Source: an uncultured Clostridia bacterium (lineage in GTDB: Bacteria > Bacillota > Clostridia > Christensenellales > Aristaeellaceae). From it: 24,681 bases of DNA. Every line of letters starts with the position of its first letter. Position 1 is the first letter of the stretch. The notes under the pieces were generated by a model that had not been told where the DNA came from, did no database searches, and saw only the letters and a list, made by a program, of their open reading frames with translations. The stretch is taken from contig CAMMGP010000001.1 of NCBI GenBank assembly GCA_946496415.1, positions 1 through 24,681 on the forward strand, read 5' to 3'. A program made the position numbers and the translations under genes. Below are positions 4,688-20,332 of the stretch, one piece after another.

Positions 4688-4725
4688 AAATTTAGCCAAA
4701 TTAAGTAGAAAGGCGGTTCTTGTTT

Positions 4726-5700
4726 ATGAAGAAGGTACTGGTTTTGTTGTTGGCGCTTTGCCTTATCCTGGGCCTGGCGGGCGGCGCGCTGGCGGAGGAA
4801 GAGATCACCGTCGGCTACACCGTGCAGAGCATGGAGAACGCTTATTTTGTGTCCATCGTGGACGGCATGAAGGCCGCCGCCAAGGATCGCGGCATCAACC
4901 TGATCGTCTCCGACGCGGCTGCGGACGCGTCCAAGCACATCAACCACATTGAGGACTTCATCGCGCAGGGCGTGGATGCCATCATCATCAGCCCCGTGGA
5001 TCAGGAAGCCCCGGTAGATGCGGTGAAGCAGGCGCAGGAAGCCGGCATCCCGGTGATCAGCCTTGACCAGGAAGTCAGCGGCAGCGACGCCGTGTTCTGC
5101 ATCAGCGAGCATGCGTACGGCTATATGGGCGGCCAGATTGCCGGCGAGTGGCTCAATGAGAAGGAAGCCGATGGAACCATCGAAGACGTGCTTTCTGAAA
5201 GCGGCACCATCGAAGTCGTCGTCGTGCGCTATGACATGATCAAGTCCGTCATCGAGCGCGCGCAGGGCCTGAAGGACGGCCTGCTCGAAACCTATACCGG
5301 CGATCATGAGATCGACATCGTCTATGAGCAGAACGCGGCCAACGCGGATGAAGGCTTCAACCTGGCCGAGACGGCGCTGACTGCCAATCCGGACATTTCC
5401 ATCTTCGTGTGCATCAACGACTCCGGCGCTCTGGGCGTTTACGAAGCCTGCCTGCTGCACAAGGAGCACACCCCGGAGAACACCTGCATCGTCGGCCTCG
5501 ACGCGCTGGAGGAGCCGCTGCGCCTGATCTCTGAGGACACCATGTATAAGGGCACGGTCGACATCCAGCCCGCGCAGAAGGGCGCCGAAGTGCTGGACAT
5601 CGTGCTCGACGTTCTGGAGAACGGTCCTATCGAGGAAAAGATCACCTATGAGATGAACCCCGTCACCAAGGCGAATATCGCCGATTACGTGACCGACTGA
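4726..5700 (+). CDS. Monosaccharide ABC transporter substrate-binding protein (RbsB-like, CUT2)
   Basis: Signal peptide MKKVLVLLLALCLILGLAGGALA; TVGYTVQSMENAYF, DAIIISPVD, IPVISLD, IFVCINDSGALG, IVGLDA. Start moved from TTG 4720 to ATG 4726 (RBS AAAGGCGG). Confidence 0.9.
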   Translation: MKKVLVLLLALCLILGLAGGALAEEEITVGYTVQSMENAYFVSIVDGMKAAAKDRGINLIVSDAAADASKHINHIEDFIAQGVDAIIISPVDQEAPVDAVKQAQEAGIPVISLDQEVSGSDAVFCISEHAYGYMGGQIAGEWLNEKEADGTIEDVLSESGTIEVVVVRYDMIKSVIERAQGLKDGLLETYTGDHEIDIVYEQNAANADEGFNLAETALTANPDISIFVCINDSGALGVYEACLLHKEHTPENTCIVGLDALEEPLRLISEDTMYKGTVDIQPAQKGAEVLDIVLDVLENGPIEEKITYEMNPVTKANIADYVTD

Positions 5701-5744
5701 TCCAACAAATCTTAGACATCCGGCAAACGCGGTTTTGCCGGGGA

Positions 5745-5772
5745 GCAGGGCGGGGGCTGACCCCCGCTCTGC
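5745..5772 (+). other. GC-rich stem-loop without U-tract between binding-protein and ATPase genes (probable mRNA-stabilising hairpin)
   Basis: 12-bp stem GCAGGGCGGGGG / CCCCCGCTCTGC (one G.U), loop CTGA; preceded by a second hairpin CCGGCAAA (5720-5727) / TTTGCCGG (5734-5741). Confidence 0.6.
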
Positions 5773-5817
5773 GCGTTCATGAGGCCATGAACGAACGAGC
5801 ATTCTGAAAGGAAGGGC

Positions 5818-7308
5818 ATGCGTATGGATCAGCCGATTCTCGAATTGCGCTCCATTACCAAGAAATACCCGGGTGTCGTCGCCCTGGACGATGTTTCGTT
5901 GAGTTTTTATCGCGGCGAGGTGCACGCCATCGTCGGAGAGAACGGCGCCGGCAAGTCTACGTTTATCAAGGTGATCACCGGCGCCATCCAGCCCACCAAG
6001 GGAGAGATATGGTTCGAGGGCAAAAAGCTTGAAAACAACAATCCGCAAAAGGCTCTGGAAATGGGCATATCCGCGATCTATCAGGAATTGAACCTCCTCA
6101 AGGATCTGACGGTGGCGGAAAACATTTTTTACAACCGCTATATCTACAAACACGGCCTGATTGATTATCGGGCCATCGAGGAAGAATCCCACAAGGTGCT
6201 TGAGCGATTGGGCGTCAAAATCGATCCCAAAACGCTGGTCAAGAATCTGTCAGTGGGCTATCAGCAGTTGGTCGAGATCGCGAAGTCGCTTTCGCGCACT
6301 GTGAAAGTCCTGATTTTGGATGAGCCCAGCGCGCCGCTGACCAACAATGAACTGAAATACCTCTTTGACATCGTGGAGGCCATGCGCAAGGAGAACATGG
6401 CGATCATCTACATCTCCCATCGCCTGGAGGAAGTGTTCCGCCTGTGCGACAAGGTATCCGTATTCCGCGATGGACATTATATTCAGACGATGCACGTCAA
6501 GGATACGAACAAGACCGAACTGATTCGCCTGATGGTCAATCGCGAACTTAATGAATCCTTCCCGGCGCTGCATACGTCCCGCGGCGAAAAAGTTCTGGAG
6601 GTAAAGAACCTTTCTACGAGTCTCCTAAAGGATATAAGTTTTTCCGCGTATCGGGGCGAACGTCTCGGCTTTGCGGGCCTGGTAGGCGCAGGACGCACGG
6701 AGACGGCGCGTGCGGTGTTCGGCGCGGACAAAATCAAATCCGGCGAGATCCTGATTGACGGCAAGCGCATGAAGATCGATTCTCCGTCAGACGCGATTAA
6801 ATGCGGCATAGTCTATCTCTCAGAGGATCGCAAACAGTTGGGGCTGTTTTTGAACATGTCCATCGCGGACAATATACTCTTTTCCTATCTGCCCAAGCTG
6901 CGCAACAAGTTCGGCATCATCAGCAAGGGAAAGGCCTCAAGCGTTTGCGATGCGCAGATTCAGAATCTGGCGATCAAAACGCCGTCGGCGCAGCAGCTGG
7001 TGCGCAATCTGTCCGGCGGCAACCAGCAGAAGGTCGTCCTGGCCAAATGGATGCTGATGAATTGCGACGTCATCTTTTTTGACGAGCCGACCCGAGGCAT
7101 CGACGTGGGCGCAAAGCAGGAGATATACAAGCTGATGAACCAACTCGCGGAAGAGGGCAAGGCTGTTGTCATGATCTCTTCGGAGATGCAGGAATTGCTG
7201 GGCATGTCCGATCGAATCATCGTCATGCACGAGGGAAAGATCGTCGGCGAGTTGAGCCATGAACAGGCCACGCAGGAAGAAGTTCTTAGACTTGCATCGG
7301 GGGTGTAG
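5818..7308 (+). CDS. Monosaccharide ABC transporter ATP-binding protein (RbsA/MglA-like, tandem ATPase)
   Basis: Walker A GENGAGKST, ILDEPS, second domain GLVGAGRTE, LSGGNQQKVVLAKW, FFDEPTRGIDVGAK. Confidence 0.95.
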   Translation: MRMDQPILELRSITKKYPGVVALDDVSLSFYRGEVHAIVGENGAGKSTFIKVITGAIQPTKGEIWFEGKKLENNNPQKALEMGISAIYQELNLLKDLTVAENIFYNRYIYKHGLIDYRAIEEESHKVLERLGVKIDPKTLVKNLSVGYQQLVEIAKSLSRTVKVLILDEPSAPLTNNELKYLFDIVEAMRKENMAIIYISHRLEEVFRLCDKVSVFRDGHYIQTMHVKDTNKTELIRLMVNRELNESFPALHTSRGEKVLEVKNLSTSLLKDISFSAYRGERLGFAGLVGAGRTETARAVFGADKIKSGEILIDGKRMKIDSPSDAIKCGIVYLSEDRKQLGLFLNMSIADNILFSYLPKLRNKFGIISKGKASSVCDAQIQNLAIKTPSAQQLVRNLSGGNQQKVVLAKWMLMNCDVIFFDEPTRGIDVGAKQEIYKLMNQLAEEGKAVVMISSEMQELLGMSDRIIVMHEGKIVGELSHEQATQEEVLRLASGV

Positions 7309-7313
7309 CAACT

Positions 7314-8273
7314 ATGCAGAAGAAAATGACCGGGAAACGGAACATTCAATGGAATGACATGGGCATTATCCTTACGCTGGTCGCGATGATCGTGATCTTC
7401 TCGGTGTTCACGAAATCCTTTTTCAGCCTGCGCAACTTTACGAACGTAGCGCGCCAGATCTCCGTAACGGGGATTTGCGCCGTGGGCATGACCATGGTCA
7501 TTCTCACCGGCGGCATCGACCTGTCCATCGGTTCGCTCATCGGCCTGACGTCCGCATTGGCCGCGGTGATGATGAGCAACGGCTGCCCCATCATCCTGGC
7601 GGTGCTGGCGGCGCTGGCGGTGGGCGTGATTGTCGGTTTCTTTAACGCCACATGTATCAACTATCTCTACATTCCGCCGATGATCACGACGCTCGCCATG
7701 ATGATCTCCCTGCGCGGCGCTGTGTATCTGATTACGGGCGGTATGCCCATCTACGGCATCCCGGAGCAGTTTAAGGTGTTGGGCCAGGGCTCCATCGGCG
7801 CGCTGCCCATTTCCACCATCATCATGGTGATCGTGTTCATCTTCGGCTATATTGTATTGGGGCGCACGCCCTTTGGCCGCCATATCTACGGCATCGGCGG
7901 CAGCGCGGAAACGGCGCGCCTTTCCGGCGTGAACGTAAAGCGCGTGCTGTACAAGATGTATATGCTGGTAGGGCTGCTGGGCGCGCTGGCCGGCCTGATC
8001 CTTACCTCCCGCGTCAATAGCGGTCAGCCCAGTTCCGGCGATGGCTATGAAATGGATATCATTACCGCTGTGGTGCTGGGCGGCGTTTCCGTGTCCGGCG
8101 GCGAGGGCAAGCTTGGCAAGGTCATCATCGGCGTCATCTTCATGGGCGTGCTGGCCAATGGCATGATGATGATGAACATAAACGAGTACTGGCAGCGTGT
8201 CGTTAAAGGCCTGGTATTGCTGGCCGCGGTTGCGGTGGATATCCGGGCGAAGAACAAGGCGAAGGCTGTGTAA
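7314..8273 (+). CDS. Monosaccharide ABC transporter permease (RbsC-like)
   Basis: Hydrophobic; GMTMVILTGGIDLSIGS, FGRHIYGIGGSAETARLSGV, ITAVVLGGVSVSGGEG. Confidence 0.95.
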   Translation: MQKKMTGKRNIQWNDMGIILTLVAMIVIFSVFTKSFFSLRNFTNVARQISVTGICAVGMTMVILTGGIDLSIGSLIGLTSALAAVMMSNGCPIILAVLAALAVGVIVGFFNATCINYLYIPPMITTLAMMISLRGAVYLITGGMPIYGIPEQFKVLGQGSIGALPISTIIMVIVFIFGYIVLGRTPFGRHIYGIGGSAETARLSGVNVKRVLYKMYMLVGLLGALAGLILTSRVNSGQPSSGDGYEMDIITAVVLGGVSVSGGEGKLGKVIIGVIFMGVLANGMMMMNINEYWQRVVKGLVLLAAVAVDIRAKNKAKAV

Positions 8274-8285
8274 CGGGAGGAAATG

Positions 8286-9371
8286 ATGGCAGTATTCTTT
8301 GATCCGCAGTTGGAAAAAAAACCGGATTTCGTCCGATGCATGGAGCGCATATACGCATGGTATGACCATGAAGTACTCGATCGCGTGCCGGTACGCTTTT
8401 CCGCGCACAACGCGGAATTTGATACGGCGGAGGCGATGGATCGCTGGCCCACCTTGAAGGATCGCTGGTATGACACGGAGCATCAGATCCAGAAAGTTCT
8501 GGAGACGGTCGAAAAGGGGAGTTTTTTGGGCGAAACCTTTCCGATGTACTTTCCAAACCTGGGGCCGAACGTCTTTGCGGGCATGATGGGCGCCCAGCTT
8601 GAGTTCGGCGATGTGACCAGTTGGGCCAGACCATGCCTCTCCGGGCCGGAGGATTTGAGCAAACTGGCGTTTAATGCGTCGAGCGAGTATCTTGTCAAAC
8701 TCAACGAACTTACCGATCGCGCGTTGGAGGTATGCGAGGGAAAGTTTCTGGTGGGCTACACGGACATGCATCCGGGGCTCGACTGCGCGGACGCCCTGCT
8801 GGGCACGCAGGAACTCTTTTATCAGATCATGGACGAACCAGATTTTGTAAAAGAGGTAATCCAGCGCTGCGCGGAGCCCTTCCTGGCGGTCATGGATCAA
8901 TTCCACGCCAAGCTTTTTGCCCATGGCCAACTCTCCGTTACGTGGATGCAGATCCCCTCCTACGAGGGCATGCACATCCCAAGTTGCGATCTGGGCGCCA
9001 TGGTTTCGGAAGATACGTTCAATGAATTTGCCCTGCCGTATATTCAACAAGAAGTGAAGCACTTCCGCCACAACATCTTCCACGTCGACGGCAAAGGCGT
9101 GGCGCGCCACCTGGACGCGCTTCTGGCCATCCCCGAGATCCAGGCGTATCAGTGGGTACAGGGCGTCGGCCTGGATCGCCCGATCATGCAGTGGGTGCCG
9201 CTCATCAAGCGCATTCAAGCGGCGGGGAAGAGCGTTGTAGTGGATCTGCATTTGGACGAACTCGAACCCTTTATGGATGCGGTGCGACCGGAAGGCATCC
9301 TTCTATGCATCGACGAATCCGACCCCGAAGTACAGCAGGCGGTTCTCGACAAGCTGCTGAAATGGAAGTAA
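8286..9371 (+). CDS. Uroporphyrinogen decarboxylase (URO-D)/methyltransferase-like TIM-barrel protein, function unknown
   Basis: FPNLGPNVFAG, GYTDMHPGLD, SCDLGAMVSEDTFNEFALPY, IFHVDG, YQWVQG, KRIQAAGKS resemble URO-D-like superfamily proteins. RBS GGGAGG (8275-8280) favours the second ATG (8286) over 8283. Confidence 0.65.
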   Translation: MAVFFDPQLEKKPDFVRCMERIYAWYDHEVLDRVPVRFSAHNAEFDTAEAMDRWPTLKDRWYDTEHQIQKVLETVEKGSFLGETFPMYFPNLGPNVFAGMMGAQLEFGDVTSWARPCLSGPEDLSKLAFNASSEYLVKLNELTDRALEVCEGKFLVGYTDMHPGLDCADALLGTQELFYQIMDEPDFVKEVIQRCAEPFLAVMDQFHAKLFAHGQLSVTWMQIPSYEGMHIPSCDLGAMVSEDTFNEFALPYIQQEVKHFRHNIFHVDGKGVARHLDALLAIPEIQAYQWVQGVGLDRPIMQWVPLIKRIQAAGKSVVVDLHLDELEPFMDAVRPEGILLCIDESDPEVQQAVLDKLLKWK

Positions 9372-9384
9372 GGAAGATGCACGC

Positions 9385-10104
9385 ATGAGAAAGATACGTT
9401 ATGAGGAAATGCTGCCCGCGGAATTTCTGGACGCGGTTCAGCACATGCCGGTATTCATCGTTCCCTTGGGATTGCTGGAATGGCACGCCGATCATCTGCC
9501 GCTGGGGCAGGACGCTTTGAAAGCGCATGGTATCTGTTTGCGCATCGCGGAAAAGCTGGATGGCGGGATCGTGCTGCCGCCGGTCTATTTCGGACGCCCT
9601 GGCTTTTCCACCTATACGGGAACGCTGACGTTTTCGGAAGCGCTGGTGAATCTGATGCTCAGCGAATTGTGCCAACAACTCAAAAAGGTCGGCGCGAAGG
9701 TGATCGTGTTCATGGTCGGGCATTACGGCCCCTTGCAGGAGCAATGTATCGAACGCGCTGCGATGATCCTGGCGCGAGAAAACCCGGATATACGCATCAT
9801 CGCCCACAGAGAGTGCGACGGCGTGGAGATTGACGGCGAAATGCCCTGCGACCATGCGGGAAAATGGGAAACGTCCATGTTCATGAGCATGTATCCAGAA
9901 CTTGCTCATATGGAATTGCTGCGCGATCCGCCCCTGCCGCAAAAACTCTATCCCAACGCTCCCCTTGATTTCTACCGCGAAAGCGCGGACTGGGTCTGGG
10001 AGACGGACGTACACGCCTCGAATCCGGAACTGGGCAGACGGGCCGTGGAAGCGGCGGCGCAGAATTTTGCCGGAGAGATCCTGACTGCGCTGCGGGAACT
10101 TTGA
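9385..10104 (+). CDS. Creatininase-family (creatinine amidohydrolase/MftE/ArfB-like) metallo-amidohydrolase
   Basis: PLGLLEWHADHLPLGQDA, VGHYG and DHAGKWETS carry the E-x-H, D, H, E metal-ligand pattern of the family. Confidence 0.85.
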   Translation: MRKIRYEEMLPAEFLDAVQHMPVFIVPLGLLEWHADHLPLGQDALKAHGICLRIAEKLDGGIVLPPVYFGRPGFSTYTGTLTFSEALVNLMLSELCQQLKKVGAKVIVFMVGHYGPLQEQCIERAAMILARENPDIRIIAHRECDGVEIDGEMPCDHAGKWETSMFMSMYPELAHMELLRDPPLPQKLYPNAPLDFYRESADWVWETDVHASNPELGRRAVEAAAQNFAGEILTALREL

Positions 10105-10267: not shown

Positions 10268-11761
10268 CTAGTGGATGCTGCGGCGCAGCGACCAAAGGCG
10301 CAGATCGCGCACGGAGGCTTCGCCGCCCCTTGCCTCGATTTCTATGCCATCCTGTTCTGCGGGCGCGAACACGTTCAGACTCTGGCAGACGCGCCCGCCG
10401 TCGGCAAATATCTCAATGGAATCCATATCGAGGAACACGCGCACCTCCATTGTCTCGCGTCCCTTCATGGGCAATGGCGCCCGGCATGTGCCGCGGCTCC
10501 AACCGTCGGCGTTGTTGCGATCAGCGCGCAATTCTGCGTTGGCAAGGTCGAAAGCGACCTCCACCGCCCTTCCGTTGCCCACGCGCAGGCGCAACAGAAC
10601 GGCGCTTGCCCGCGTGTGGGCAAGATCAAGCGTAAAATCCAATTCCGCTGCCGCGCCACAGCCGACGGCGCGCGCTTCGCCGCCTTTAAGCAGAAGATCG
10701 CAGCCGTCGACCAGCGGCAAGTCGCGCAGCGACTCGACCTCCTGGACAGGGCGGAAAGCCAGCGTATGGTCGGGCAGCATGACGACCTCTCGCGGCAGGG
10801 TCATGGCGCCGCACCAACCCTCCTTGTAGGTCGGTCCCCAATCCTTCCACCAGGGCATCCAGTCCCAGGCGTTCGCCCAACCGATCAGCAGCCTGCGCCC
10901 CTTGCCGTCGAGAAACGATTGTGGCGCGTAGCAGTCAAAGCCCCAATCCGTTTCGCCAGATATGTGATGGGAAAACCTGCCCGTCTTAAAATCCATTTCC
11001 CCGACGAGATAGACCGTTTTGCGTTCGCCCAAGCCCATCGGAGAGAACATCAGCACATACAGGCCTTCATCGCCGAGCGGGAAGAAGTCCGGGCATTCCC
11101 ACATATAGCCCAATTCGCCCCGGCTTTCGGCAAGAACGTTGACAAATTCCCACTGCAGCAGGTCTTCTGAGCGATAGAGCAGCGCCTGCGCCCGTTCGCT
11201 TTTCTTTGCGCCTACCACCATATAGAAAACGCCATCATGGGCAAACACGCGGGGATCGCGGAAGTTGGCGGGATCGTAGCCCGCGGGCGCCGTCAATACG
11301 GGATTCCCGGCATACTTTTCAAAGCGCACGCCATCTTCGCTCCAGGCGACGCATTGCGTCTGTTTGAAGCCGTCTCCCTCGTTGGTCGTACCTGTGTATA
11401 CAAGATACAGCTTGCCATCGTGCTCGATAGCGCTTCCTGAGAAACAACCGCCCTTGGGATGATCGTCGCAGGGCTGGTCAGGGATGAGCGCTGGCGGCAG
11501 ATATTCCCAGTGCATCAGATCGTCGCTGACCGCATGCCCCCAATGCATCATGCCCCAGAAAGCGTCAAAGGGGTTGTACTGAAAAAAGAGGTGATAGCGC
11601 CCGCGAAACCAGATGAGGCCGTTCGGATCATTCATCCATCCGACTTCGGGCATGAAGTGGTAATGTTGGCGCATCGGCGCATCCAACACGCCTTCCCGGG
11701 CCTGTGCGATATAGTCGGTCACGCCTTCGCACGTCTTACGCCTTGCAAGCAATTGGTTCAT
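10268..11761 (-). CDS. GH32 beta-fructofuranosidase / sucrose-6-phosphate hydrolase-like, cytoplasmic
   Basis: Catalytic motifs WMNDPNG, FRDP, WECPDF, plus WGHAVS and CFSGSA. Start moved from 11920 to ATG 11761 (RBS GAGGAGG, 16 nt after the GRE stop). No signal peptide. Confidence 0.93.
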   Translation of the reverse strand: MNQLLARRKTCEGVTDYIAQAREGVLDAPMRQHYHFMPEVGWMNDPNGLIWFRGRYHLFFQYNPFDAFWGMMHWGHAVSDDLMHWEYLPPALIPDQPCDDHPKGGCFSGSAIEHDGKLYLVYTGTTNEGDGFKQTQCVAWSEDGVRFEKYAGNPVLTAPAGYDPANFRDPRVFAHDGVFYMVVGAKKSERAQALLYRSEDLLQWEFVNVLAESRGELGYMWECPDFFPLGDEGLYVLMFSPMGLGERKTVYLVGEMDFKTGRFSHHISGETDWGFDCYAPQSFLDGKGRRLLIGWANAWDWMPWWKDWGPTYKEGWCGAMTLPREVVMLPDHTLAFRPVQEVESLRDLPLVDGCDLLLKGGEARAVGCGAAAELDFTLDLAHTRASAVLLRLRVGNGRAVEVAFDLANAELRADRNNADGWSRGTCRAPLPMKGRETMEVRVFLDMDSIEIFADGGRVCQSLNVFAPAEQDGIEIEARGGEASVRDLRLWSLRRSIH

Positions 11762-11777: not shown

Positions 11778-14021
11778 TCAATTTCGCTGATAGCGCTGGG
11801 CGATCTCCCGCTGCATTTGCGGCTCGAGGTCCACGAAACGGGCGCTGTATCCGCATACGCGCACGACCAGGTCGCCGTGCGCCTCCGGATGGACAAGCGC
11901 GTCGGCGATGGCGGATTCATCCAGCAAGTCGAAGTCCGCGGCGCTTCCGCCCATTTCCAGGAAATAGCGGATCAGATGCTCGCACAAGGCGTCGTCGCCC
12001 TTGCCCAGGGAAAGCGGCAAGGTAAAATACGCCACTGCGGCCTGCGCAAAAGCCGTGAGATCAAGCGCGGAGAATGCGTGGATCATGGCGGCGATGCCCG
12101 TATGCGTGCTCTCCGAAGGATTGATGCCTCTTGAGAGCCGTTCGCCGGCATGACGACCGTTTGCCGAGGCGCCACACGGCTGTCGCATCCATTCATAACC
12201 GTAAAACGACCACACGGAGGCCTCGTAGTATCCGCCGCGCGCGTTTGGCATGTCGGCCATCGCCGTAGCGACGCCGTCGATCATCTGGCGGGCGAAGGCG
12301 TTGATGGAATCGTCGTCGCTGCCGTATTTGTCCACGCGGTTTTGCAGATACGCGCGTTCCGCCTCGAAGCCGGCAAAGTCGGCGCGCAGCATGCGGCAGA
12401 GTTGCTCGAGCGTGAAGCGTTTTTCTTCAAAAACGGTTCTCTCGATGGCGCGCATGGAGTCGATGAACGTGCTCAACCCCACCAGCGCGAAGGAACTGCC
12501 GTTGTAAAGCGCTCCGCCCTGCGTCAGGTCGCGCCCACGCTCCAGGCATTGGAGATTTGTCGCGGAAAGAAAGGGCAGAGGGTTGTTTTGCGGCCAGCGG
12601 CGTTCAAATGTATTGTAGTGCCAGGCGATGGCGTTGATGATCAGCGCCAAACCGCGGAACACTCGGCGGCTGAACTCCGCAAAATCATTGCAGCGTTCCA
12701 ACGTCGGCGGTAGTATGCGCTCCCGCGCGAAGAAACCGTCGTCGTTTTTCAGGAGCAGCATCTCCAGATAGCGGGCGGGGTTGAGATAACAAATGGCACG
12801 GGAATTGAGTTCCGTTTCCGCCAACAGCACTTCCTGACAGCCGCCGTTTACATACAGGCGCGAATCCTCGAGAGCCTTGCCCATGCGTGTCTGCGCCTGG
12901 ATGATCACGCGGTCGTTGAATATGGAAAGTACGTTCAGACCGCTGGAGGCGACGCGGGCAATCAGGGCAAAGTAGGCGTCATCCGCGCCGGGCGCAAAGC
13001 GCGCCTGTAGTTTGGGATTGACCAGCCGCAAGTCCAGATAGGCCGCGCAGATCCATTCCGTTACCGGATTGAACACCGGCGTACCATCGCGGTCGCAACC
13101 GCCGATGTTGATGGAGGTGTTCGTGCCGTAGACGGCATCGTGGAGATCCCATTTCGCGTCTGTAAAGGCGCAAAACCAGTAGAGCAGGTCGCGCGCTTCC
13201 TCCGGCGTGATCTCCCCGCTGGCAAGGTCGCGTTGAAGGTATGGCCAAAGCAGCCTGTCCACATGCCCCAGAATGGCCACGCCGGCCGAATCCAATACGT
13301 TGCCGAGTTCTTTCAGATAGAGGATCGTATTGAGCGCCTCAAAAAAGGTTCTTGCGCCCTCCAGAGGACAGCGGCGCGCGGAAACAGCGATGCGCGCCAG
13401 ACGCGCGCGTATGCTCTCGTCTGTCTCCCGCTCCAGCATTACCTCCGCTTCCTGAGCGAAGCGCTCGCCCAGGCGCGCTACACAATCGCAGGCGGCGATG
13501 GCCGCGCGCAGAAAGTCCGCGTCGCCTTGCCCCGCGGCCAGCGCGGCCTTGGCGCGCTCGCGCATCCCGGCGAAACCGTGGTTGAGAATGGTTTCCACGC
13601 CGGCGGCATTGTGCGCCAGATCTGCGTAAAGCGTCGAATAGAGTATGCCCGCGTCCATCGGGGGCTTGCGAAACGCCTCGAAATCCTCTGCAAGTCCGGA
13701 GCGGTCGCTGCGCATCACCCAGCTTCCCAGGCCGGATACCGGCGGAAACGCCGAGCCGAGCAGATTGCGCGGCGCGCCCGTGACCACCTCGAAATAAAAC
13801 GGATAATGGCGAAAAATCTTAACGGGGCAATTCCCGGCGATCTCCTCATAGACCCAGACCTTGCGCGCAAACGCGTTTGCCTGCGGACAGGCCGTCAAAC
13901 GCGCCTCTAGGCGCGCTTCCTGAGCGGATACGTCCGCGGGATAGAGCGCATACCAGGCGGCAAATTCCGCGCGGAAATCGGCGTATTCGCGGCCAAAGGC
14001 CGTCTTTTTCCAGCTGTCCAT
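11778..14021 (-). CDS. Glycyl radical enzyme (PFL-like superfamily), divergent and uncharacterised
   Basis: C-terminal Gly loop LVVRVCGYSARF (Gly724, nt 11850-11852); Cys loop YVNGGCQEV (Cys395, nt 12837-12839); LGHVDRLLWPY, INIGGCDRDG, ASANGRHAGERLSRGINPS; cognate activating enzyme two genes upstream. Confidence 0.9.
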   Translation of the reverse strand: MDSWKKTAFGREYADFRAEFAAWYALYPADVSAQEARLEARLTACPQANAFARKVWVYEEIAGNCPVKIFRHYPFYFEVVTGAPRNLLGSAFPPVSGLGSWVMRSDRSGLAEDFEAFRKPPMDAGILYSTLYADLAHNAAGVETILNHGFAGMRERAKAALAAGQGDADFLRAAIAACDCVARLGERFAQEAEVMLERETDESIRARLARIAVSARRCPLEGARTFFEALNTILYLKELGNVLDSAGVAILGHVDRLLWPYLQRDLASGEITPEEARDLLYWFCAFTDAKWDLHDAVYGTNTSINIGGCDRDGTPVFNPVTEWICAAYLDLRLVNPKLQARFAPGADDAYFALIARVASSGLNVLSIFNDRVIIQAQTRMGKALEDSRLYVNGGCQEVLLAETELNSRAICYLNPARYLEMLLLKNDDGFFARERILPPTLERCNDFAEFSRRVFRGLALIINAIAWHYNTFERRWPQNNPLPFLSATNLQCLERGRDLTQGGALYNGSSFALVGLSTFIDSMRAIERTVFEEKRFTLEQLCRMLRADFAGFEAERAYLQNRVDKYGSDDDSINAFARQMIDGVATAMADMPNARGGYYEASVWSFYGYEWMRQPCGASANGRHAGERLSRGINPSESTHTGIAAMIHAFSALDLTAFAQAAVAYFTLPLSLGKGDDALCEHLIRYFLEMGGSAADFDLLDESAIADALVHPEAHGDLVVRVCGYSARFVDLEPQMQREIAQRYQRN

Positions 14022-14032
14022 ATCGTTTCCCC

Positions 14033-15055
14033 CTAAAATACCAGCGCGACTTTGCGCCCTGCGCGGCTGCGCACCAGTTCGAATCCCTCGGCATACGCCT
14101 CTACCGGCAAACGATGGGAGACGAACTCCCGCAGATCCAGCTTTTTTTCGCTCACGAGCGAGCAGACGAAATCATGCGCGTCGCGCTCATAGCGGGCGAT
14201 CGGCCACTGCACGGAATGAATATTGAAGTTGTAGGGCGCGGCGTCCCAATCGATGCGGTCGCCGGTGTGCAGGCCAATGCCATAGAGGGCGATTTTTCCT
14301 TCTTCCTTGACCACCTGCATGCCCTGATCGATGATCTGCGCGCGTCCAACGCAGTCGATAAACAGGTCGAGCCCCTGCGGGAACATCGAGCGCAGCGCCT
14401 GCACGGTATCGACCTGCTTGGTATTGAAGGCCGCGTCCGCGCCCAGACGCTCCGCCGCGCGCAGACGATCTTCGTGATGACCGGCGAGCACGACGCGCCG
14501 CGCTCCCATCTGCCGGCTCAGCGAAACCATGGCCAGTCCCACCGGGCCGCAACCTACCACCGCCACATCCATGCCTGGCTGCAGGCCCAGGCGCGCGAGC
14601 GCCCCCGCCACCTCCTTGAGGGTGATGATCATCACCGCGTCTACGGGATCAATGTCTGCGGGGATCACTTGGCGCGTGCTCAGATCGATGTGCGCAGGCA
14701 CGCCATCCGCGATGCATGCGTCATAGTCATCCACAACGCCATACTCGGCAAAGCCTCCCCACCGGCTGTATACGTCCGGCAGGTCCGGCAGCGAGGAGCG
14801 CAACACGCGGTCGCCGACGTGGAAAGAACGCACCTTCGCTCCCACTTCAATCACTTCGCCCACGGCCTCATGACCGAGGACACAGGGGTATCGTGCGAAG
14901 TCGCGTAGCCCGCCGGTAAGCAACTTGAGGTCGGTACCGTTACAGATGCCACAAGCCACATTGCGGCACAGCGCCTGATGATCGCCGATGACAGGCATGG
15001 GCAGATCGTCCCGAAGGCGCAATACGCCGGGCTTTTCAATGACCAGTCCTCGCAT
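14033..15055 (-). CDS. MDR-superfamily zinc-type dehydrogenase/reductase (sorbitol/threonine dehydrogenase-like)
   Basis: CGICNGTD, LGHEAVGEV, GDRV, GGFAEY, GCGPVG. Start moved to ATG 15055 (RBS GGAGG). Confidence 0.88.
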   Translation of the reverse strand: MRGLVIEKPGVLRLRDDLPMPVIGDHQALCRNVACGICNGTDLKLLTGGLRDFARYPCVLGHEAVGEVIEVGAKVRSFHVGDRVLRSSLPDLPDVYSRWGGFAEYGVVDDYDACIADGVPAHIDLSTRQVIPADIDPVDAVMIITLKEVAGALARLGLQPGMDVAVVGCGPVGLAMVSLSRQMGARRVVLAGHHEDRLRAAERLGADAAFNTKQVDTVQALRSMFPQGLDLFIDCVGRAQIIDQGMQVVKEEGKIALYGIGLHTGDRIDWDAAPYNFNIHSVQWPIARYERDAHDFVCSLVSEKKLDLREFVSHRLPVEAYAEGFELVRSRAGRKVALVF

Positions 15056-15082
15056 AAGAAATTCCTCCATCATTCATTTCCG

Positions 15083-15955
15083 TCAAAAGGCGACTTCGAC
15101 GCCCCGACGCTCAAATTCTGCCGCCGCCACGCGCATTTGCGCGTCTGTTGGCGGCGCGTACTCGACGAATTGTCGCCCCAGGCGAACATATTTGCCTTTG
15201 CCCAGGGCATGGTATTTGAGAAGCTCAACGCGCAATTCTCCTGTGAGCGAACTCAGATACTGGGCGATCGCCTTCACTTGGCCAAGGTTGAGTTTTGCTA
15301 CCAAAGGCACGCGCACCACCACGGGGCGAACGCGCAACAAACGGGGCAGGTTTTGCAGTATGCGCGCGTTATCTACGCCCGTTACGCGGCGATGGAGGGC
15401 CGCGTCCATGGCCTTGATGTCGTAGAGAAATAGATCCGTGTCCTCCAACACGGCGTCAAAGCATTCCCAAGGAACGTCGCCGGCGGTGTCGACGGCCGTG
15501 TGCACGCCCTCGGCGCGCAGTATATGCAGAAGTTCCGCCGCAGCCTCCACCTGCAACAGGGGTTCTCCGCCGGAGAGCGTTACGCCTCCGCCGGAGATAT
15601 GGAACAGTTGGCGGTCGCGCAATGCGATGTGGGCGATCTCCGCTGCTTCCAGACGCTGCCCTGCCAGCTGCAAAGCCCCCGTCGGGCAACGCTGCGCGCA
15701 TTTGCCGCAGGCAAAGCATTTCGTGCGGTCGAACTGCGTCGGCCCCGCTGTCCGCGCTGCGCAAAGGCCAACGCAGGCGCCGCAGCCGATGCACTTCGTG
15801 GCGTCAAAGAGTATCTCCGGTTCCATGTGCTGAGACTCGGGATTGTGGCACCAGGCGCAGCGAAGCCCACAACCCTTGAAAAAGACTGTCGTGCGCGCTC
15901 CCGGTCCGTCGTGGAGCGAGAGGCGCTGTATATCAAAGATGGTCGCCTTGCTCAT
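15083..15955 (-). CDS. Glycyl-radical enzyme activating enzyme (radical SAM) with ferredoxin-like insert
   Basis: IFDIQRLSLHDGPGARTTVFFKGCGLRCAWCHNPES (CxxxCxxC); CIGCGACVGLC and CFACGKCAQRC; GGVTLSGGEP; HTAVDTAG; YDIK. Start taken at ATG 15955 (TTG 15964 possible). Confidence 0.93.
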   Translation of the reverse strand: MSKATIFDIQRLSLHDGPGARTTVFFKGCGLRCAWCHNPESQHMEPEILFDATKCIGCGACVGLCAARTAGPTQFDRTKCFACGKCAQRCPTGALQLAGQRLEAAEIAHIALRDRQLFHISGGGVTLSGGEPLLQVEAAAELLHILRAEGVHTAVDTAGDVPWECFDAVLEDTDLFLYDIKAMDAALHRRVTGVDNARILQNLPRLLRVRPVVVRVPLVAKLNLGQVKAIAQYLSSLTGELRVELLKYHALGKGKYVRLGRQFVEYAPPTDAQMRVAAAEFERRGVEVAF

Positions 15956-15973
15956 ATCTCTCAAACATCTTTC

Positions 15974-16002
15974 TTGCGTCCTGACGCAAAATGTGTTATC
16001 AT
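15974..16002 (+). promoter_or_regulatory. Promoter of the LacI-family gene, with extended -10
   Basis: TTGCGT (15974-15979), 17-nt spacer, TATCAT (15997-16002), with TG at 15994-15995 (TGn extended -10). Confidence 0.6.
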
Positions 16003-16050
16003 GGATCGAAAGTGTCGATCTACGGTTTTCCGCGCAGGGGGGTATATTCT

Positions 16051-17064
16051 GTGGTCAAACTCGATGATGTAGCGCGTTTGGCGGGCGTGTCCAAGGGCAC
16101 GGCGTCGCGCGTGCTCAACAACCGGGGCTATATATCGCCGCAAACGCGGCAGAAGGTAAAGCAAGCGATGAAAGCGCTCAATTACTTTCCCAACGAGAAT
16201 GCCCGCAACCTTCTGCGACAGCGTTCCGGCATGATCGGCGTAGTCGTGCCTACGATCACCTATCCGTATTATTCAGAGATCATATCCCATCTGGAGCGTT
16301 GCCTCAAGGAGCACGACTACAAAATGCTCCTCTGCAATACGGCATTCAATGCCGGCAACAACATTGACTATGTGCATACGCTCTCTAAGAATCGCGTCGA
16401 GGGCGCGATCCTGTTCAACTATCAGCTGGAGAACAAGGATTACGATGCGATTCCCTTTCCCATCGTTTCCATCGACCGCTTCGTCAAGGACAGCGTTTCC
16501 TTTGTCGCGTCCAATCACGAGCAGGGCGGCCTGTTGGCGGCCAACCATCTGATCGAGTGCGGTTGTCGGCATGTGATCCAGGTGGGCGGCTCCTTTCAAG
16601 AACTGACGCCTTGGAATATCCGCCATGTCAAATTCCGCGAAACCATGCGCGAAAATGGCATTGAGTGCATCAGTTACGAGCAGGCCTCCGACGACCATGA
16701 TTTCCACGATTATCGGGAGATCGTCCTCCAGCTGTTGCGCCAATACCCCGACACAGACGGCTTTTTCTGCAATGATCTGTGCGCCGCCGCAGCGCTTAAT
16801 GCCGCTACTTCGCTGAGCATACGCGTGCCGGAGCAATTGAAGATCGTCGGCTATGACGGCACCATTCTTTCAGAGATCGTTACCCCGGCCATCACCAGCA
16901 TTTGGCAAGATGTGCAAAAGATCGCCACATCCGCCTGCGAGATCCTGTTTCAGCGCATCGAAGATCCAGACACAACGCCCTGCAATATGCTCATTGGCGT
17001 CAAGTTGCTCAGGCGCGGAAGCACTGTGCCGGCGCGGACGCCCGAGATGCCGCCGAAGCGATAG
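16051..17064 (+). CDS. LacI-family transcriptional regulator (ScrR-like)
   Basis: HTH KLDDVARLAGVSKGTASRVLN, hinge YFPNENARNL, IGVVVP, FCNDLCA, VPEQLKIVGYDG. Start moved to GTG 16051 (RBS AGGGGGG). Confidence 0.93.
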   Translation: MVKLDDVARLAGVSKGTASRVLNNRGYISPQTRQKVKQAMKALNYFPNENARNLLRQRSGMIGVVVPTITYPYYSEIISHLERCLKEHDYKMLLCNTAFNAGNNIDYVHTLSKNRVEGAILFNYQLENKDYDAIPFPIVSIDRFVKDSVSFVASNHEQGGLLAANHLIECGCRHVIQVGGSFQELTPWNIRHVKFRETMRENGIECISYEQASDDHDFHDYREIVLQLLRQYPDTDGFFCNDLCAAAALNAATSLSIRVPEQLKIVGYDGTILSEIVTPAITSIWQDVQKIATSACEILFQRIEDPDTTPCNMLIGVKLLRRGSTVPARTPEMPPKR

Positions 17065-17094
17065 CGTCCGGCGGCATCGTTCTTTGCCGAAAGG

Positions 17095-18438
17095 TCAGCG
17101 GTAGTCCTCGCGCAGCTTTGCGGCGAAAGCCGTATTCAGCGCCGATTCCCGGCGCGCTTTTTCTTCTTTGATGCGGAATTGCGCTTCGCGGCGGGGGCGA
17201 TACTCCTCCCAGCGGCGCTCAAAGGCCTCGCGCGCCTTTTTTTGCTCGGGGGTAAGGTCGGCGCGTGGGTGCGGGGCGGGGATGGGCGCGGGCGTCACCG
17301 GCAGGCGCTGTTCCACCGGCAGTATGCTCATATCCGCCTGCGTGGGCAGAAGTTGATACCAGTAGGCGGTGGAACTCCAATCGTCGCAAAGATGGTTGGC
17401 GTGACCGTGCTCTATGGTCACACGCAGGCTCTTCTCGAAGTATACAGGATCCGTGATATGGAAGCGGTAAGCGACATGGAAGCCGTCCGTATCGCCTTCG
17501 TGCACGATGGTGCCGAAGAAGGGGAAGGCGTTGCGCTGCATGCCCCAGGCGTGGTTGAAGTAGTCCTCCGTACCGGTGCCGTTGAGGCTGGGATACTCCT
17601 CGCCATCGATGAAAAACATGTCGTTGCCCTCGCCCCACCAGCTTCCCTGGAAGTGGCGCACGCTGAGGTTGCAGCCGATGTAGTGCCCCTTGCCCTTTAC
17701 GTCCAGCACCACATAGTTGTCCTCGCCCTTGAGGTTGACCATCGTGTTCACTTCGGGGCTGTTGGTTTGTATATCCGGACCCCAGCCCTTGCAGGGGTTG
17801 GCGCGGTTCCACTTGGCGTGAAAGTAGGCGGTATCCTCCGGCAGCGGATGTTTGTACATTTCATAGTCGATATTGAAGTAGAGGATAAACGGCAGGTCGT
17901 TTTCGTTGATGATCTCGATCTTTGCCTTCTTGTTGAAGGGCATGGGTAGATAGCAGGAAACCGAGCAGGGCGCGCCGTAGCGTCCCGCCTCCTCGGGCTT
18001 GAGCGATACGTTGAACGGCAGCGAGGAGAAATTGCCCGGATAGCAATTGCCGATGCAGAAGAAGTCTCCCAGGGGCGCGAGAACGCTGGGCGTATCCTGG
18101 TCATCCCAGGTCATGCGAATAAGAACTTTGCGGTAGTAGAAGGGATCATAGTCGTCACGAATGACGCCCAGGGCCGGATGAATCTCGTTGACGGGCGCGC
18201 ACAACGCGTTGAGTTCGGGATCAAGTATGCTTGGCCCGTTAACGCGGCGGCAGGACGAGGTCATCCAGATGTGGGTAATGCAAGCGGGGCCTTCAATCTC
18301 GCCCAGCACGATGGTTTCGCCGGCGGGGATCATCCAATAATCCTGGTTCATGCCGCGCTGATCCCAGCTGGCAAGGCGGCCGTTGCGGGCGCTTTTGACT
18401 CTGGTGAGGTCGTTGAACATTCCGGTTATCTGTCCCAT
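17095..18438 (-). CDS. GH172 (DUF2961) glycosidase, likely difructose dianhydride I synthase/hydrolase (alpha-D-fructofuranosidase/alpha-D-arabinofuranosidase)
   Basis: GPACITHIWMT, APLGDFF, PMPFNKKAKIEI, WWGEGNDMFFIDG, NGTGTEDYFNHAW, TIEHGHAN, WSSTAYWYQ. Hand count puts the two Glu at 270 and 291, the numbering I recall for the catalytic pair of Bifidobacterium dentium alphaFFase1. RBS AAGGAGGA; no signal peptide. Confidence 0.88.
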   Translation of the reverse strand: MGQITGMFNDLTRVKSARNGRLASWDQRGMNQDYWMIPAGETIVLGEIEGPACITHIWMTSSCRRVNGPSILDPELNALCAPVNEIHPALGVIRDDYDPFYYRKVLIRMTWDDQDTPSVLAPLGDFFCIGNCYPGNFSSLPFNVSLKPEEAGRYGAPCSVSCYLPMPFNKKAKIEIINENDLPFILYFNIDYEMYKHPLPEDTAYFHAKWNRANPCKGWGPDIQTNSPEVNTMVNLKGEDNYVVLDVKGKGHYIGCNLSVRHFQGSWWGEGNDMFFIDGEEYPSLNGTGTEDYFNHAWGMQRNAFPFFGTIVHEGDTDGFHVAYRFHITDPVYFEKSLRVTIEHGHANHLCDDWSSTAYWYQLLPTQADMSILPVEQRLPVTPAPIPAPHPRADLTPEQKKAREAFERRWEEYRPRREAQFRIKEEKARRESALNTAFAAKLREDYR

Positions 18439-18462: not shown

Positions 18463-19296
18463 TTATCCCTTGACGGCTCCAGCGGTCATGCCCTCCATAA
18501 CGTTTCTCTGGAAAATGATATAGAGGATCAGTTCAGGAACGATAATCATCACGCTGTACGCGGCGATGCCGGCGTAATCGACGCTGTAGCGGCCGCGCAG
18601 GAAGGCGATGCCGCGCGAGAGCGTGTAGTTGGCGGAATCGTTCAGCATGATCGAGGCGAAGGGATATTCGTTCCAAATATACAGCAGGTTGAAAATAATC
18701 ACCGTCGCCAGCACGGGGCGGGCGATGGGCGCGATCACGCGCACGATGAGTTGCCCCAGCGAGGCGCCGTCGATGATGCAGGCTTCGTCGATCTCCCGCG
18801 GCACTGTGCGCAGATAATTCACGAACAGCAGCGTATTGAACGAAACCGATGTAGAGATATAGGGCATCACCAGACCGATCTTCTCTCGCAGACCAATGAA
18901 ATGGTTGATGCGGTAGATGGGGAAGAGCAGTATGAACGGACTAATCGCCAGACCGATGAGCATGAACGTATACAGCGCCGCGCGCACTTTGCCGCGCTTG
19001 TAGTCCAGGCGCGCCAGGGCGAAGGCGCTGGCAAAAGTGATGGGAATCTCAATGGCAAGCGTCACCAGGGCGACAAGCGCCGTGTTGCGATAGAGCAAGC
19101 CCAGATCCAGCTTTTCCAGCGCTGCGGCATAGTTGGAAAAGCTGGCCGACGCCGGCAGCGACAGGGGATCACGCATAATCTCGGCATTGTCCTTGAGGGA
19201 GATGAATACCAGCCAGATCAGCGGCAATATCACGAGGAAGGTGATGAGCGCCAGGGCGACGTACATCAGCGTTCGTGTAGACCTGTGTGTTACCAT
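18463..19296 (-). CDS. Carbohydrate ABC permease (MalG-like, CUT1)
   Basis: Hydrophobic; EAA loop VPREIDEACIIDGAS, WNEYPFA. Confidence 0.92.
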   Translation of the reverse strand: MVTHRSTRTLMYVALALITFLVILPLIWLVFISLKDNAEIMRDPLSLPASASFSNYAAALEKLDLGLLYRNTALVALVTLAIEIPITFASAFALARLDYKRGKVRAALYTFMLIGLAISPFILLFPIYRINHFIGLREKIGLVMPYISTSVSFNTLLFVNYLRTVPREIDEACIIDGASLGQLIVRVIAPIARPVLATVIIFNLLYIWNEYPFASIMLNDSANYTLSRGIAFLRGRYSVDYAGIAAYSVMIIVPELILYIIFQRNVMEGMTAGAVKG

Positions 19297-19297
19297 G

Positions 19298-20179
19298 TCA
19301 CAGCCTCCTTTCGCCGTGTTCGCGGGTGATAAACATGTAGGCGCCCATGATGACGAAAGAGATCAGGAAAGTCACCGTTGCCAGGGCCATGCCATACCCA
19401 TATTCGCCGCTTGCAAAGGTCATATCGTAGGAATATGTCACCAGCGTTTCCGAATAGTGCGTAGGTCCGCCGCCTGTAAGCTGTTGCACGACTTCAAAGA
19501 TCTTCATCGAGCCGGTGATGATCAGTACGCCTACGGAGATGAACGTGCCCTTCATCATCGGCACGGTGATGCATATCAGCCGCTGCCAGAAGTTTGCCCC
19601 ATCTACGGCGGAGGCTTCGTAGACTTCGGTGGGGATCGTCTTTAGGCCTGCCACATAGATCGCTGCGATATAGCCGACCTGTTGCCAGAAGTAGACCACG
19701 GAGATGCTGTATGGCGAGAGCGTGTCGCCGCCGATCCACTCCAGCGCCAGCGCGTCAAGGCCGATAGAGCGCAAGACGTTGTTGATCAGGCCCGTCACGG
19801 GATCCAGGATATAGCCCCAGATGACGCCGACGATGATGCTGGCGATGATTGCCGGCGAAAACAGCAGCGCCTTGCTGACGTTGGAAAAGCGCAGCCTTTG
19901 ATTGAGCAGCAGAGCCACGAAAAACGAGCCGACGCCCAGCAGAATCAGCGACATCACCAGTATGATGCAGGTGTTTTTCAGGGCGATGCCAAAGCTGGGA
20001 TCGTTAAAGAGGCGAATGTAGTTGTTCCAGCCGTAAAAGCGCGGCTTGCTGATGCCGCTGTAACGCATGAAACTGTAATAAATGGCGATGAATACCGGCA
20101 CGATCAGATATACGATGTAGACCGCCAGCGTCGGCGCCAGAAGGATTACTTTATTTCTCGTCTTGCTAAGCCAACCCAC
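19298..20179 (-). CDS. Carbohydrate ABC permease (MalF-like, CUT1)
   Basis: GWNNYIRLFND, EAA loop IPTEVYEASAVDGAN, GYGMALA; GTG start with RBS AAGGAG. Confidence 0.92.
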   Translation of the reverse strand: MGWLSKTRNKVILLAPTLAVYIVYLIVPVFIAIYYSFMRYSGISKPRFYGWNNYIRLFNDPSFGIALKNTCIILVMSLILLGVGSFFVALLLNQRLRFSNVSKALLFSPAIIASIIVGVIWGYILDPVTGLINNVLRSIGLDALALEWIGGDTLSPYSISVVYFWQQVGYIAAIYVAGLKTIPTEVYEASAVDGANFWQRLICITVPMMKGTFISVGVLIITGSMKIFEVVQQLTGGGPTHYSETLVTYSYDMTFASGEYGYGMALATVTFLISFVIMGAYMFITREHGERRL

Positions 20180-20233
20180 ATGTGCTCACTCCTTCTCGAT
20201 CCTGGTAAGCGTCGCCGCCACGCGCTGGCGGGG

Positions 20234-20276
20234 AAAAGAGCGCCGGCCTACCGGCATGGGTAGCGACCGGCGCTCT
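20234..20276 (-). terminator. Hairpin with a short U-tract after the binding-protein gene (leaky terminator or stabiliser)
   Basis: Outer stem AGAGCGCCGG (20237-20246) / CCGGCGCTCT (20267-20276), inner CTACC/GGTAG; AAAA at 20234-20237 gives UUUU on the - strand transcript. Confidence 0.55.
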
Positions 20277-20332
20277 GGCGCCTGCTTGGGCTGCGGCTTG
20301 AGCAGACGCTGGTGCCTTGCGCGCGGGGATGC

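Follow-up and report, generated by a model that had tools for sequence, protein, structure and literature searches.

A glycyl radical enzyme of a GCQE clade, encoded with sugar-uptake and fructosidase genes in a gut Clostridia bacterium, may cleave C–O bonds of neutral sugars

Newly assigned glycyl radical enzymes (GREs) have each revealed an anaerobic reaction of relevance to the gut, including the conversion of choline to trimethylamine, the dehydration of hydroxyproline, the cleavage of sulfonates and the glycolysis of anhydroglucitol. In Escherichia coli, YbiW and PflD are the GRE isomerases of anhydroglycolysis: they convert 1,5-anhydroglucitol-6-phosphate and 1,5-anhydromannitol-6-phosphate to 1-deoxyfructose-6-phosphate, and thus set a precedent for the opening of anhydrohexitol rings by a GRE. 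Their substrates are phosphorylated because they are fed by a phosphotransferase system (PTS). Here we describe a divergent GRE of 747 amino acids, encoded on the minus strand at positions 11778–14021 of a 24,681-nucleotide stretch of DNA (hereafter, the window; contig CAMMGP010000001.1 of assembly GCA_946496415.1) from an uncultured Clostridia bacterium of the Aristaeellaceae. From its sequence and gene neighbourhood, we consider it somewhat probable that this member of an uncharacterised clade cleaves a C–O bond of a fructose-related hexitol or anhydrohexitol, neutral and non-phosphorylated, by chemistry of the eliminase or isomerase type.

The enzyme resembles YbiW and PflD in its GRE fold, its Cys-x-Glu motif, a dedicated activase, a sugar-uptake locus, a carbohydrate substrate (predicted in our case) and a downstream aldolase in the pathway. 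It differs from them in sequence (25–27% identity), in carrying GCQE where they have GCIE or GCVE and a canonical ELI[IA]G N terminus, in its association with an ATP-binding cassette (ABC) importer rather than a PTS, and in the zinc dehydrogenase encoded next to it, which they lack. Glycerol dehydratase (GDH; 1R8W) and the 1,2-propanediol dehydratases (5I2G and 9RCO–9RCR) match it with E values of about 1e-60 and template modelling (TM) scores of 0.81–0.85, and share the Cys-x-Glu motif and a conserved histidine (H164 in GDH, H137 here); however, they are only 22–25% identical, their diol-binding residues are replaced, and the enzyme described here is about 40–60 residues shorter at the N terminus. 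CutC and HypD belong to the same superfamily and mechanistic class and give comparable profile scores, but the enzyme falls far below their equivalog cut-offs and their substrates and genomic contexts are unrelated. A further parallel lies in the genes around the enzyme. The difructose dianhydride I and fructoside locus of Bifidobacterium dentium (PMC8605356) combines the GH172 enzyme alphaFFase1, a GH32 enzyme and an ABC transporter, and the window likewise holds together a GH172 protein with both motif glutamates, a GH32 protein and a sugar ABC importer. By contrast, the abstract describing that locus gives no sign of a radical enzyme or a dehydrogenase, and the term 'glycyl radical' is absent from the whole paper.

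The GRE, an oxygen-sensitive type of enzyme, is intact and full-length, with a complete set of predicted catalytic motifs. Its reading frame opens with an ATG preceded by AGGGGGAAACGAT, a purine-rich ribosome-binding site, and the protein aligns over 100% of its length with homologues that are at least 56% identical to it. The original prediction had drawn attention to a GGCQE cysteine loop, an RVCGYS sequence around Gly724, a length of 747 residues and a KIFRHYPFYF segment near the N terminus; all of these were confirmed in the minus-strand frame, the prediction itself having named no strand. The cysteine loop occupies residues 393–397 (Cys395, Gln396 and Glu397, checked by script), the glycine loop residues 721–726, with Gly724 at the radical-glycine position, and the N-terminal segment residues 68–77 (68–78 when read as KIFRHYPFYFE). 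Pfam recognizes a PFL-like domain (313 bits) and a Gly_radical domain (44.8 bits, cut-off 22.2), and the glycine-loop fingerprint of the superfamily, RVxG[FWY]x6-8[FL]x4Qx2[IV]x2R (2026 review, PMC13450708), is matched in full by RVCGYSARFVDLEPQMQREIAQR at residues 721–743. An AlphaFold model built from 55 homologues reached a predicted local distance difference test (pLDDT) score of 93.3 and a predicted TM (pTM) score of 0.93, and Foldseek placed this model on solved eliminase GREs with TM scores of 0.81–0.85 at 19–25% identity, showing the ten-stranded barrel of these enzymes.

Sequence comparison sets the enzyme far from every GRE of known function. It scores 290.7 bits with TIGR01774, the model for PFL2 and glycerol dehydratase, for which the cut-off is 678. 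Its scores with the NCBIfam models for HypD (235 bits, cut-off 1100), CutC (218 bits, cut-off 1050) and sulfopropanediol dehydratase (202–224 bits, cut-off 1000) are lower still, and over the equivalogs for CutC, HypD, HpsG/HpfG and arylacetate decarboxylase they range from 113 to 235 bits against cut-offs of 1000–1150, none of which was reached. The best sequence matches in the PDB were CutC, the 1,2-propanediol dehydratase 9RCO, glycerol dehydratase, Archaeoglobus fulgidus PFL2 and HypD (E values of about 1e-59 to 1e-62), and identity to the solved or characterised enzymes lies between 19 and 27% throughout, with BLASTP values of 27% for PflD and 25% for YbiW. In our alignments, the residue that follows the catalytic cysteine is valine or isoleucine in all seven GREs whose structure is solved or whose function is known, reading GCVE in GDH, two propanediol dehydratases, CutC, PflD and A. 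fulgidus PFL2, and GCIE in YbiW.

To place the GCQE loop in a wider context, we collected homologues on two scales. A word-indexed search returned 63 homologue clusters, mostly of 745–750 amino acids. One cluster of close homologues comprises over 3,000 sequences. When 55 of the homologues were aligned, Gly393, Gly394, Cys395, Glu397 and Gly724 proved invariant and Gln396 was present in at least 90%. An exhaustive HMMER search of 1.84 billion representative sequences yielded 4,592 GRE relatives, with matches that span the N terminus extending down to about 270 bits. From these hits, with PflD and YbiW added, we built a tree of 198 aligned GREs in which these two were the sole members of known function; other characterised enzymes were compared outside the tree, through the PDB and NCBIfam searches. 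The 112 sequences that carry an N-terminal xFRHxPFYFE segment form one clade (support 1.0), from which PflD and YbiW are excluded. GCQE occurs in 88 of these 112 sequences, the remainder having GCHE or GCW[E/D/G/S], and in only 2 of the 86 other sequences in the tree; Glu397 is invariant in all 88 GCQE sequences as well as in the 55-sequence alignment. Our enzyme has the three features that define the clade (xFRHxPFYFE, GGCQE and a length of about 745–750 residues) and falls inside a 22-member subclade at identities of at least 50%. Because its sequence features are conserved across homologues and clade, they are not chance variants of a single gene. The clade is large, its 112 sequences being cluster representatives, and extends over Bacillota (Clostridia), Planctomycetota, Verrucomicrobiota, Armatimonadota, Latescibacterota and Lentisphaerota.

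The N terminus differs in a consistent way. Canonical GREs, including PflD and YbiW, read I-x-I-x-x-ELI[VIA]G at the equivalent position, whereas the clade retains the glutamate and glycine (E78-V-V-T-G82 in our enzyme) directly after an extra FRHYPFYF. The approximately 45 residues that come next in the canonical enzymes are absent here, which accounts for a length of 747 rather than about 790–810 amino acids. The residue before the radical glycine is alanine or serine in canonical enzymes, and in the clade it is cysteine (53% of GCQE sequences), serine or tryptophan. In our enzyme it is Cys723, encoded at 11853–11855 of the window, and a thiol beside the glycyl radical is unusual. Among the sister branches with the N-terminal motif, some (for example P0094, P0106–P0108, P0113 and P0119–P0121) have the cysteine loops GCWD, GCWG or GCWS, without the catalytic glutamate, and others carry GCHE; judged by these loops, such variants presumably carry out different chemistry.

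Together, these comparisons support the assignment of the enzyme to a new subfamily for which the searched literature holds no function. The original prediction had proposed such a subfamily and looked for high identity to a characterised GRE, or a common occurrence of GCQE in an assigned subfamily, as the findings that would speak against it. Neither was seen: identities stop at 27%, no equivalog cut-off was approached, the seven enzymes aligned have valine or isoleucine after the catalytic cysteine, and GCQE lies almost wholly inside the uncharacterised clade. In a full-text literature search, no paper connected a GRE with GH32, with GH172 or with hexitols, and relevant hits were limited to the work on YbiW and PflD and the 2026 review (PMC13450708).

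The neighbouring genes indicate what kind of substrate such an enzyme may meet. On the minus strand, four genes follow one another in the order activase, zinc dehydrogenase, GRE and GH32. The first (15083–15964) encodes a radical SAM GRE activating enzyme with Pfam Radical_SAM and Fer4 domains, which exceeds the cut-off of TIGR02494 (315 bits, cut-off 174) and has the CX3CX2C motif (CGLRCAWC at residue 32) and the two-cluster ferredoxin insert of a cognate activase. The second (14033–15073), which ends 11 nucleotides upstream of the GRE gene, encodes a zinc-type medium-chain dehydrogenase of 346 amino acids (Pfam ADH_N and ADH_zinc_N). In the PDB it comes closest to sorbitol dehydrogenase, threonine dehydrogenase and ketose reductase, and it reached no NCBIfam equivalog. 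The catalytic-zinc cysteine, the His-Glu pair and GxGxxG are present, and there is no cysteine in the segment that we take to be the site of the structural-zinc cysteines. The fourth gene (10268–11761) starts 16 nucleotides past the GRE stop codon, is preceded by the ribosome-binding site GAGGAGG and encodes a GH32 beta-fructofuranosidase of 497 amino acids, counted from the ATG at 11761 (TIGR01322, 367 bits, cut-off 356). Its three catalytic motifs, WMNDPNG, RDP and ECP, are all present; it is probably cytoplasmic, because inspection by eye showed no hydrophobic stretch at its N terminus. Upstream of this operon, beyond a gene for a LacI-family regulator on the opposite, plus strand (15991–17064, assigned by Pfam and NCBIfam), lies a second minus-strand operon. 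It encodes a CUT1-type sugar ABC importer (18463–21622), with a binding protein at 20333–21622 and permeases at 19298–20179 and 18463–19296, and ends in a GH172 gene (17095–18438; Pfam DUF2961, 289 bits) whose product has both motif glutamates, Glu270 in WWGEG and Glu291 in GTGTEDY. Transporters of the CUT1 type and LacI regulators typically serve neutral sugars.

This arrangement recurs in relatives. We fetched 80 genome loci and four metagenome loci (numbered L001 onwards) and clustered their open reading frames; the counts below refer to 52 gene maps, including that of the window, about 35 of which have enough flanking sequence to be judged. The conserved context spans relatives whose GREs are 38–56% identical to ours. 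A zinc dehydrogenase gene adjoins the GRE gene in 21 of the 52 loci, all of the Clostridia type, and these loci nearly always have an ABC importer and an activase as well. Homologous CUT1 transporter genes stand beside the GRE gene in about 20 related loci, and most related loci have a LacI gene. A GH32 gene lies within about 10 kb in 12 of the 52 (GRE identities of 38–56%), including one Armatimonadota genome, and follows the GRE gene immediately on its 3' side in the window and in L001, L081 and L082, where the GREs are 55–56% identical to that of the window. Rarer neighbours are a PfkB kinase (9 of 52 loci), a class II ketose-bisphosphate aldolase (6 of 52) and GH172 (3 of 52). A phosphoglucose isomerase gene is found at the ends of L014 (19497–20996), L015 and L023, from two Blautia and one Ruminococcus sp., and a mannitol-dehydrogenase-family gene at the end of L007 (20254–21417), from a Limiplasma metagenome-assembled genome (MAG); both are consistent with hexitol or hexose-phosphate intermediates. 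The activase, the dehydrogenase and the GRE make up the constant core of these loci, and the set of glycosidases varies.

In 12 of the 52 maps, the GRE gene has near it a gene for a protein of about 915 amino acids (L002, at 14577–17321, L003, L007, L010, L014–L016, L023, L025, L034, L083 and L085). This protein has only sub-threshold Pfam matches, to six-hairpin (rhamnosidase-like) domains and DUF4980, and none in NCBIfam; an Atlas feature search pointed to six-hairpin glycosidases or phosphorylases. The protein probably represents a glycoside hydrolase or phosphorylase outside the classified families. Its specificity would reveal the substrate of the pathway. It was not found in the genome of the window, a MAG that is 70% complete. 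The loci of the cultured carriers Diplocloster agilis and D. hominis comprise only the regulator, importer, dehydrogenase, GRE and activase, a reduced set that points to uptake of a monomeric substrate in these bacteria. Cultured carriers include D. agilis ASD5720, D. hominis CSJ-3, Blautia fusiformis CLA-AA-H217 and Blautia sp. XA-2221. In environmental members (Planctomycetota, Latescibacterota and others, with the loop GGCQEN), the GRE gene lies instead beside genes for sulfatases, URO-D-like proteins, GH78 rhamnosidases, a fucosidase, and xylose-isomerase-like and sugar-phosphate-isomerase-like barrels, and the mapped loci show no dehydrogenase or activase nearby. The clade is therefore linked to carbohydrates in general and to fructose in its Clostridia branch. 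A URO-D-family gene follows or flanks the GRE gene in L017 (12291–13232), L084 (10686–11627), L039, L038 and L041, which come from MAGs of Latescibacterota, Verrucomicrobiota, Victivallales and Armatimonadota, and a second GRE gene lies about 5 kb away in L017 and L084.

We then considered the active site by aligning the enzyme with Clostridium butyricum GDH (1R8W; 22–25% identity), counting positions by hand. The histidine equivalent to GDH H164 (H137) is invariant among the homologues. GDH H281/S282 correspond to G247/V248, of which the glycine is invariant and the valine variable in the close clade, and Y339 corresponds to N301 in the sequence GTNT (299–302), conserved in 100% of the close clade. 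H446/D447 are replaced by R408/A409 (R408 in 100%) and Y640 by W604 (95%), and E600, two strand positions before W604, is again present in 100%. Of the GDH residues that we take to bind the diol (H164, S282, D447 and Y339), only H164 is therefore kept, the other three being replaced by V248, A409 and N301. Because N301 with its GTNT, R408, E600 and W604 are polar or aromatic and conserved at 95–100% in the close clade, we predict a polar pocket with an aromatic platform, reminiscent of sugar-binding sites and suited to a hydroxyl-rich substrate. The original prediction had suggested that Gln396 may bind a hydroxyl-rich substrate. In a hairpin in which Cys395 and Glu397 (0 and +2) face the substrate, the side chain of Gln396 (+1) may instead pack against the glycine loop, which has its own unusual residue in this clade at position 723.

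On this basis, a catalytic route can be proposed. The C–O and C–N eliminases and the isomerases covered by the 2026 review (PMC13450708) retain Cys-x-Glu, with the glutamate hydrogen-bonded to a substrate hydroxyl, and the motif is present here as C395-Q396-E397. The original prediction had read this motif as a sign of dehydratase, C–O lyase or isomerase chemistry, and established knowledge (PMC13450708) supports this reading. Given the complete glycyl fingerprint, the Cys-x-Glu motif, the adjacent activase and the confident GRE fold, we infer C–O cleavage of the eliminase or isomerase type. The activase would install the radical on Gly724, from where it would pass to Cys395 as a thiyl radical. 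The thiyl radical would abstract hydrogen from the substrate at a carbinol carbon, whose hydroxyl would be deprotonated by Glu397. The leaving group would be either a neighbouring hydroxyl (dehydration) or a ring oxygen (ring opening), and the resulting alpha-keto radical would regain a hydrogen from Cys395.

The nature of the substrate is suggested by the same loci. A CUT1 ABC importer in place of a PTS, LacI regulators in most loci and the conserved polar and aromatic pocket positions argue for a neutral sugar; GH32 in 12 of 52 loci, GH172 in three and a GH32 in the window that is catalytically intact by motif provide the link to fructose. The target of the enzyme is probably a C–O bond in a neutral sugar or sugar alcohol, and the searched literature holds no description of such a route. 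The substrate could be imported directly through the CUT1 transporter, or arise in the cytoplasm from the fructose freed when GH32 and GH172 act on imported fructosides or difructose dianhydrides. The zinc dehydrogenase is a plausible partner because it is adjacent in 21 loci and its nearest solved relatives include sorbitol dehydrogenases and a ketose reductase; it would either reduce a ketose to the polyol on which the GRE acts, or reduce or oxidize a carbonyl product. In relatives, the PfkB kinase and the class II ketose-phosphate aldolase would route the product into glycolysis. Each single compound, such as mannitol, sorbitol, a 1,5-anhydrohexitol or 2,5-anhydromannitol, is much less likely to be the substrate than the class as a whole is. 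More tentatively, the enzyme may found a new functional class of GREs, whose substrate would be a free, non-phosphorylated hexitol or anhydrohexitol formed from fructose and whose reaction would be dehydration or ring opening; mannitol, for example, formed from fructose by the adjacent dehydrogenase, would yield a deoxy-ketose. If so, gut anaerobes would have a radical route for carbon from fructans, caramel and polyols, a counterpart of anhydroglycolysis in E. coli, which depends on a PTS. The pairing of a polyol-type dehydrogenase with a sugar importer, and its frequent joining to fructoside-degrading genes, leaves a short list of candidate substrates: fructans, anhydrohexitols, sugar alcohols that serve as sweeteners, and difructose dianhydrides from heated food. 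Assigning the function would extend the GRE repertoire by a carbohydrate reaction and explain how some gut anaerobes use such compounds.

Other explanations have to be weighed against this one. Like the B12-independent dehydratases, the enzyme might have a small diol (glycerol or 1,2-propanediol) as its substrate, with the zinc dehydrogenase reducing the aldehyde and the sugar genes merely supplying carbon. Its best fold matches are propanediol and glycerol dehydratases, it has Cys-x-Glu and the equivalent of GDH His164 (His137), and a dehydrogenase beside a dehydratase is a classic arrangement. Nevertheless, we regard this as highly improbable: identity to diol dehydratases is just 22–25%, TIGR01774 gives 291 bits where 678 are needed, three of the four diol-binding positions are replaced (S282 by V248, D447 by A409 and Y339 by N301), no microcompartment shell genes occur in the window, and the dehydrogenase is polyol-dehydrogenase-like rather than of the iron type known from 1,3-propanediol dehydrogenase. 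Moreover, the same genome already encodes two adjacent canonical PFL2-type GREs (contig C8, 1486–8222) that exceed the TIGR01774 cut-off, at 935 and 828 bits. That the chemistry lies outside the eliminase and isomerase repertoire altogether, as C–C cleavage or sugar epimerization with Gln396 and Cys723 in an altered radical relay, would suit a deep-branching clade with GGCQE in place of [IV]GC[VI]E, the RVCG thiol, a shortened N-terminal domain and sister branches that have lost the glutamate (GCWD, GCWG and GCWS). We find it improbable, because Glu397, the hallmark of the eliminases and isomerases that deprotonate a hydroxyl, is invariant in the 88 GCQE sequences and the 55-sequence alignment, and the neighbouring genes include none for accessory subunits. 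A MAG fragmented into 285 contigs at 70% completeness might well contain an inactive relic or an artefact of assembly, but this is hardly credible for an open, full-length frame with intact catalytic motifs and activase, a confident model, near-identical sequences in over a dozen independent runs of chicken-gut metagenomes and short metatranscriptome contigs that touch the gene.

A more serious challenge comes from carbohydrates unrelated to fructose, such as a charged sugar acid or a fragment of a sulfated or methylated sugar, on which the enzyme would perform C–O cleavage, with GH32 and GH172 carried along under shared regulation in a locus for several substrates. In favour of this, Arg408 and Glu600, which align with the active site, are both conserved, environmental members lie beside sulfatase, URO-D-like, GH78 and fucosidase genes, and many Firmicutes loci have no GH32 and encode the 915-residue six-hairpin glycosidase-like protein instead. 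We consider this unlikely, although it deserves weight. The GH32 gene stands directly downstream of the GRE gene in the window (16-nucleotide gap), L001, L081 and L082, and it recurs beside GREs of different subclades and phyla, seemingly far beyond chance, as judged by expectation rather than a computed background; CUT1 transporters and LacI regulators, too, usually go with neutral sugars. Several observations do weigh against a neutral, fructose-related substrate. About two thirds of the related loci have no GH32, and the clade as a whole is not fructose-specific, because its environmental members sit in other sugar contexts. The pocket was mapped through a distant alignment (22–25% identity) and assumed GDH residues, not through coordinates, and a charged compound, for instance a sugar acid, could suit the conserved Arg408 and Glu600 equally well. 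The PfkB kinase, class II aldolase and phosphoglucose isomerase of relatives could serve ordinary fructose glycolysis and be uninformative about the product of the GRE. Neither the kinase nor the aldolase was firmly located in the 70%-complete source MAG, in which a search gave weak matches to the PfkB kinase (28% identity) and a 45% identical match to the aldolase on a short contig.

Away from these genes, the window holds a separate plus-strand operon (4720–10104) that encodes a CUT2 (ribose-type) ABC importer, a 362-amino-acid protein and a creatininase-family amidohydrolase. We examined the 362-residue protein (8283–9371, no Pfam match) as a possible relative of the URO-D-like proteins of the environmental loci; the BLASTP E value of 0.034 gives this no real support.

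The source MAG comprises 1.56 Mb in 285 contigs and is 70% complete. Sequences nearly identical to the window were found mainly in chicken-gut metagenomes, in more than a dozen independent runs. Within the same taxonomic family, full-length members of the clade occur in about 4–5 of 60 sampled genera, and none was found in the sole other genome of the same genus, which is 100% complete; given this scattered occurrence, the trait is a patchy accessory one. Low-depth short contigs from chicken-gut metatranscriptome libraries (X14–X17) match the window between 9300 and 22300, with hits in the genes for the GRE, the dehydrogenase, the activase, GH32 and the binding protein; in X16 and X17, both labelled metatranscriptomic, the body of the LacI gene (16244–17111) was not matched. 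These contigs hint at expression in vivo, with DNA carry-over a possible source. In addition to its two canonical enzymes, the genome carries a fragment of a further divergent GRE (contig C176, 1998–3581), which falls outside the GCQE clade.

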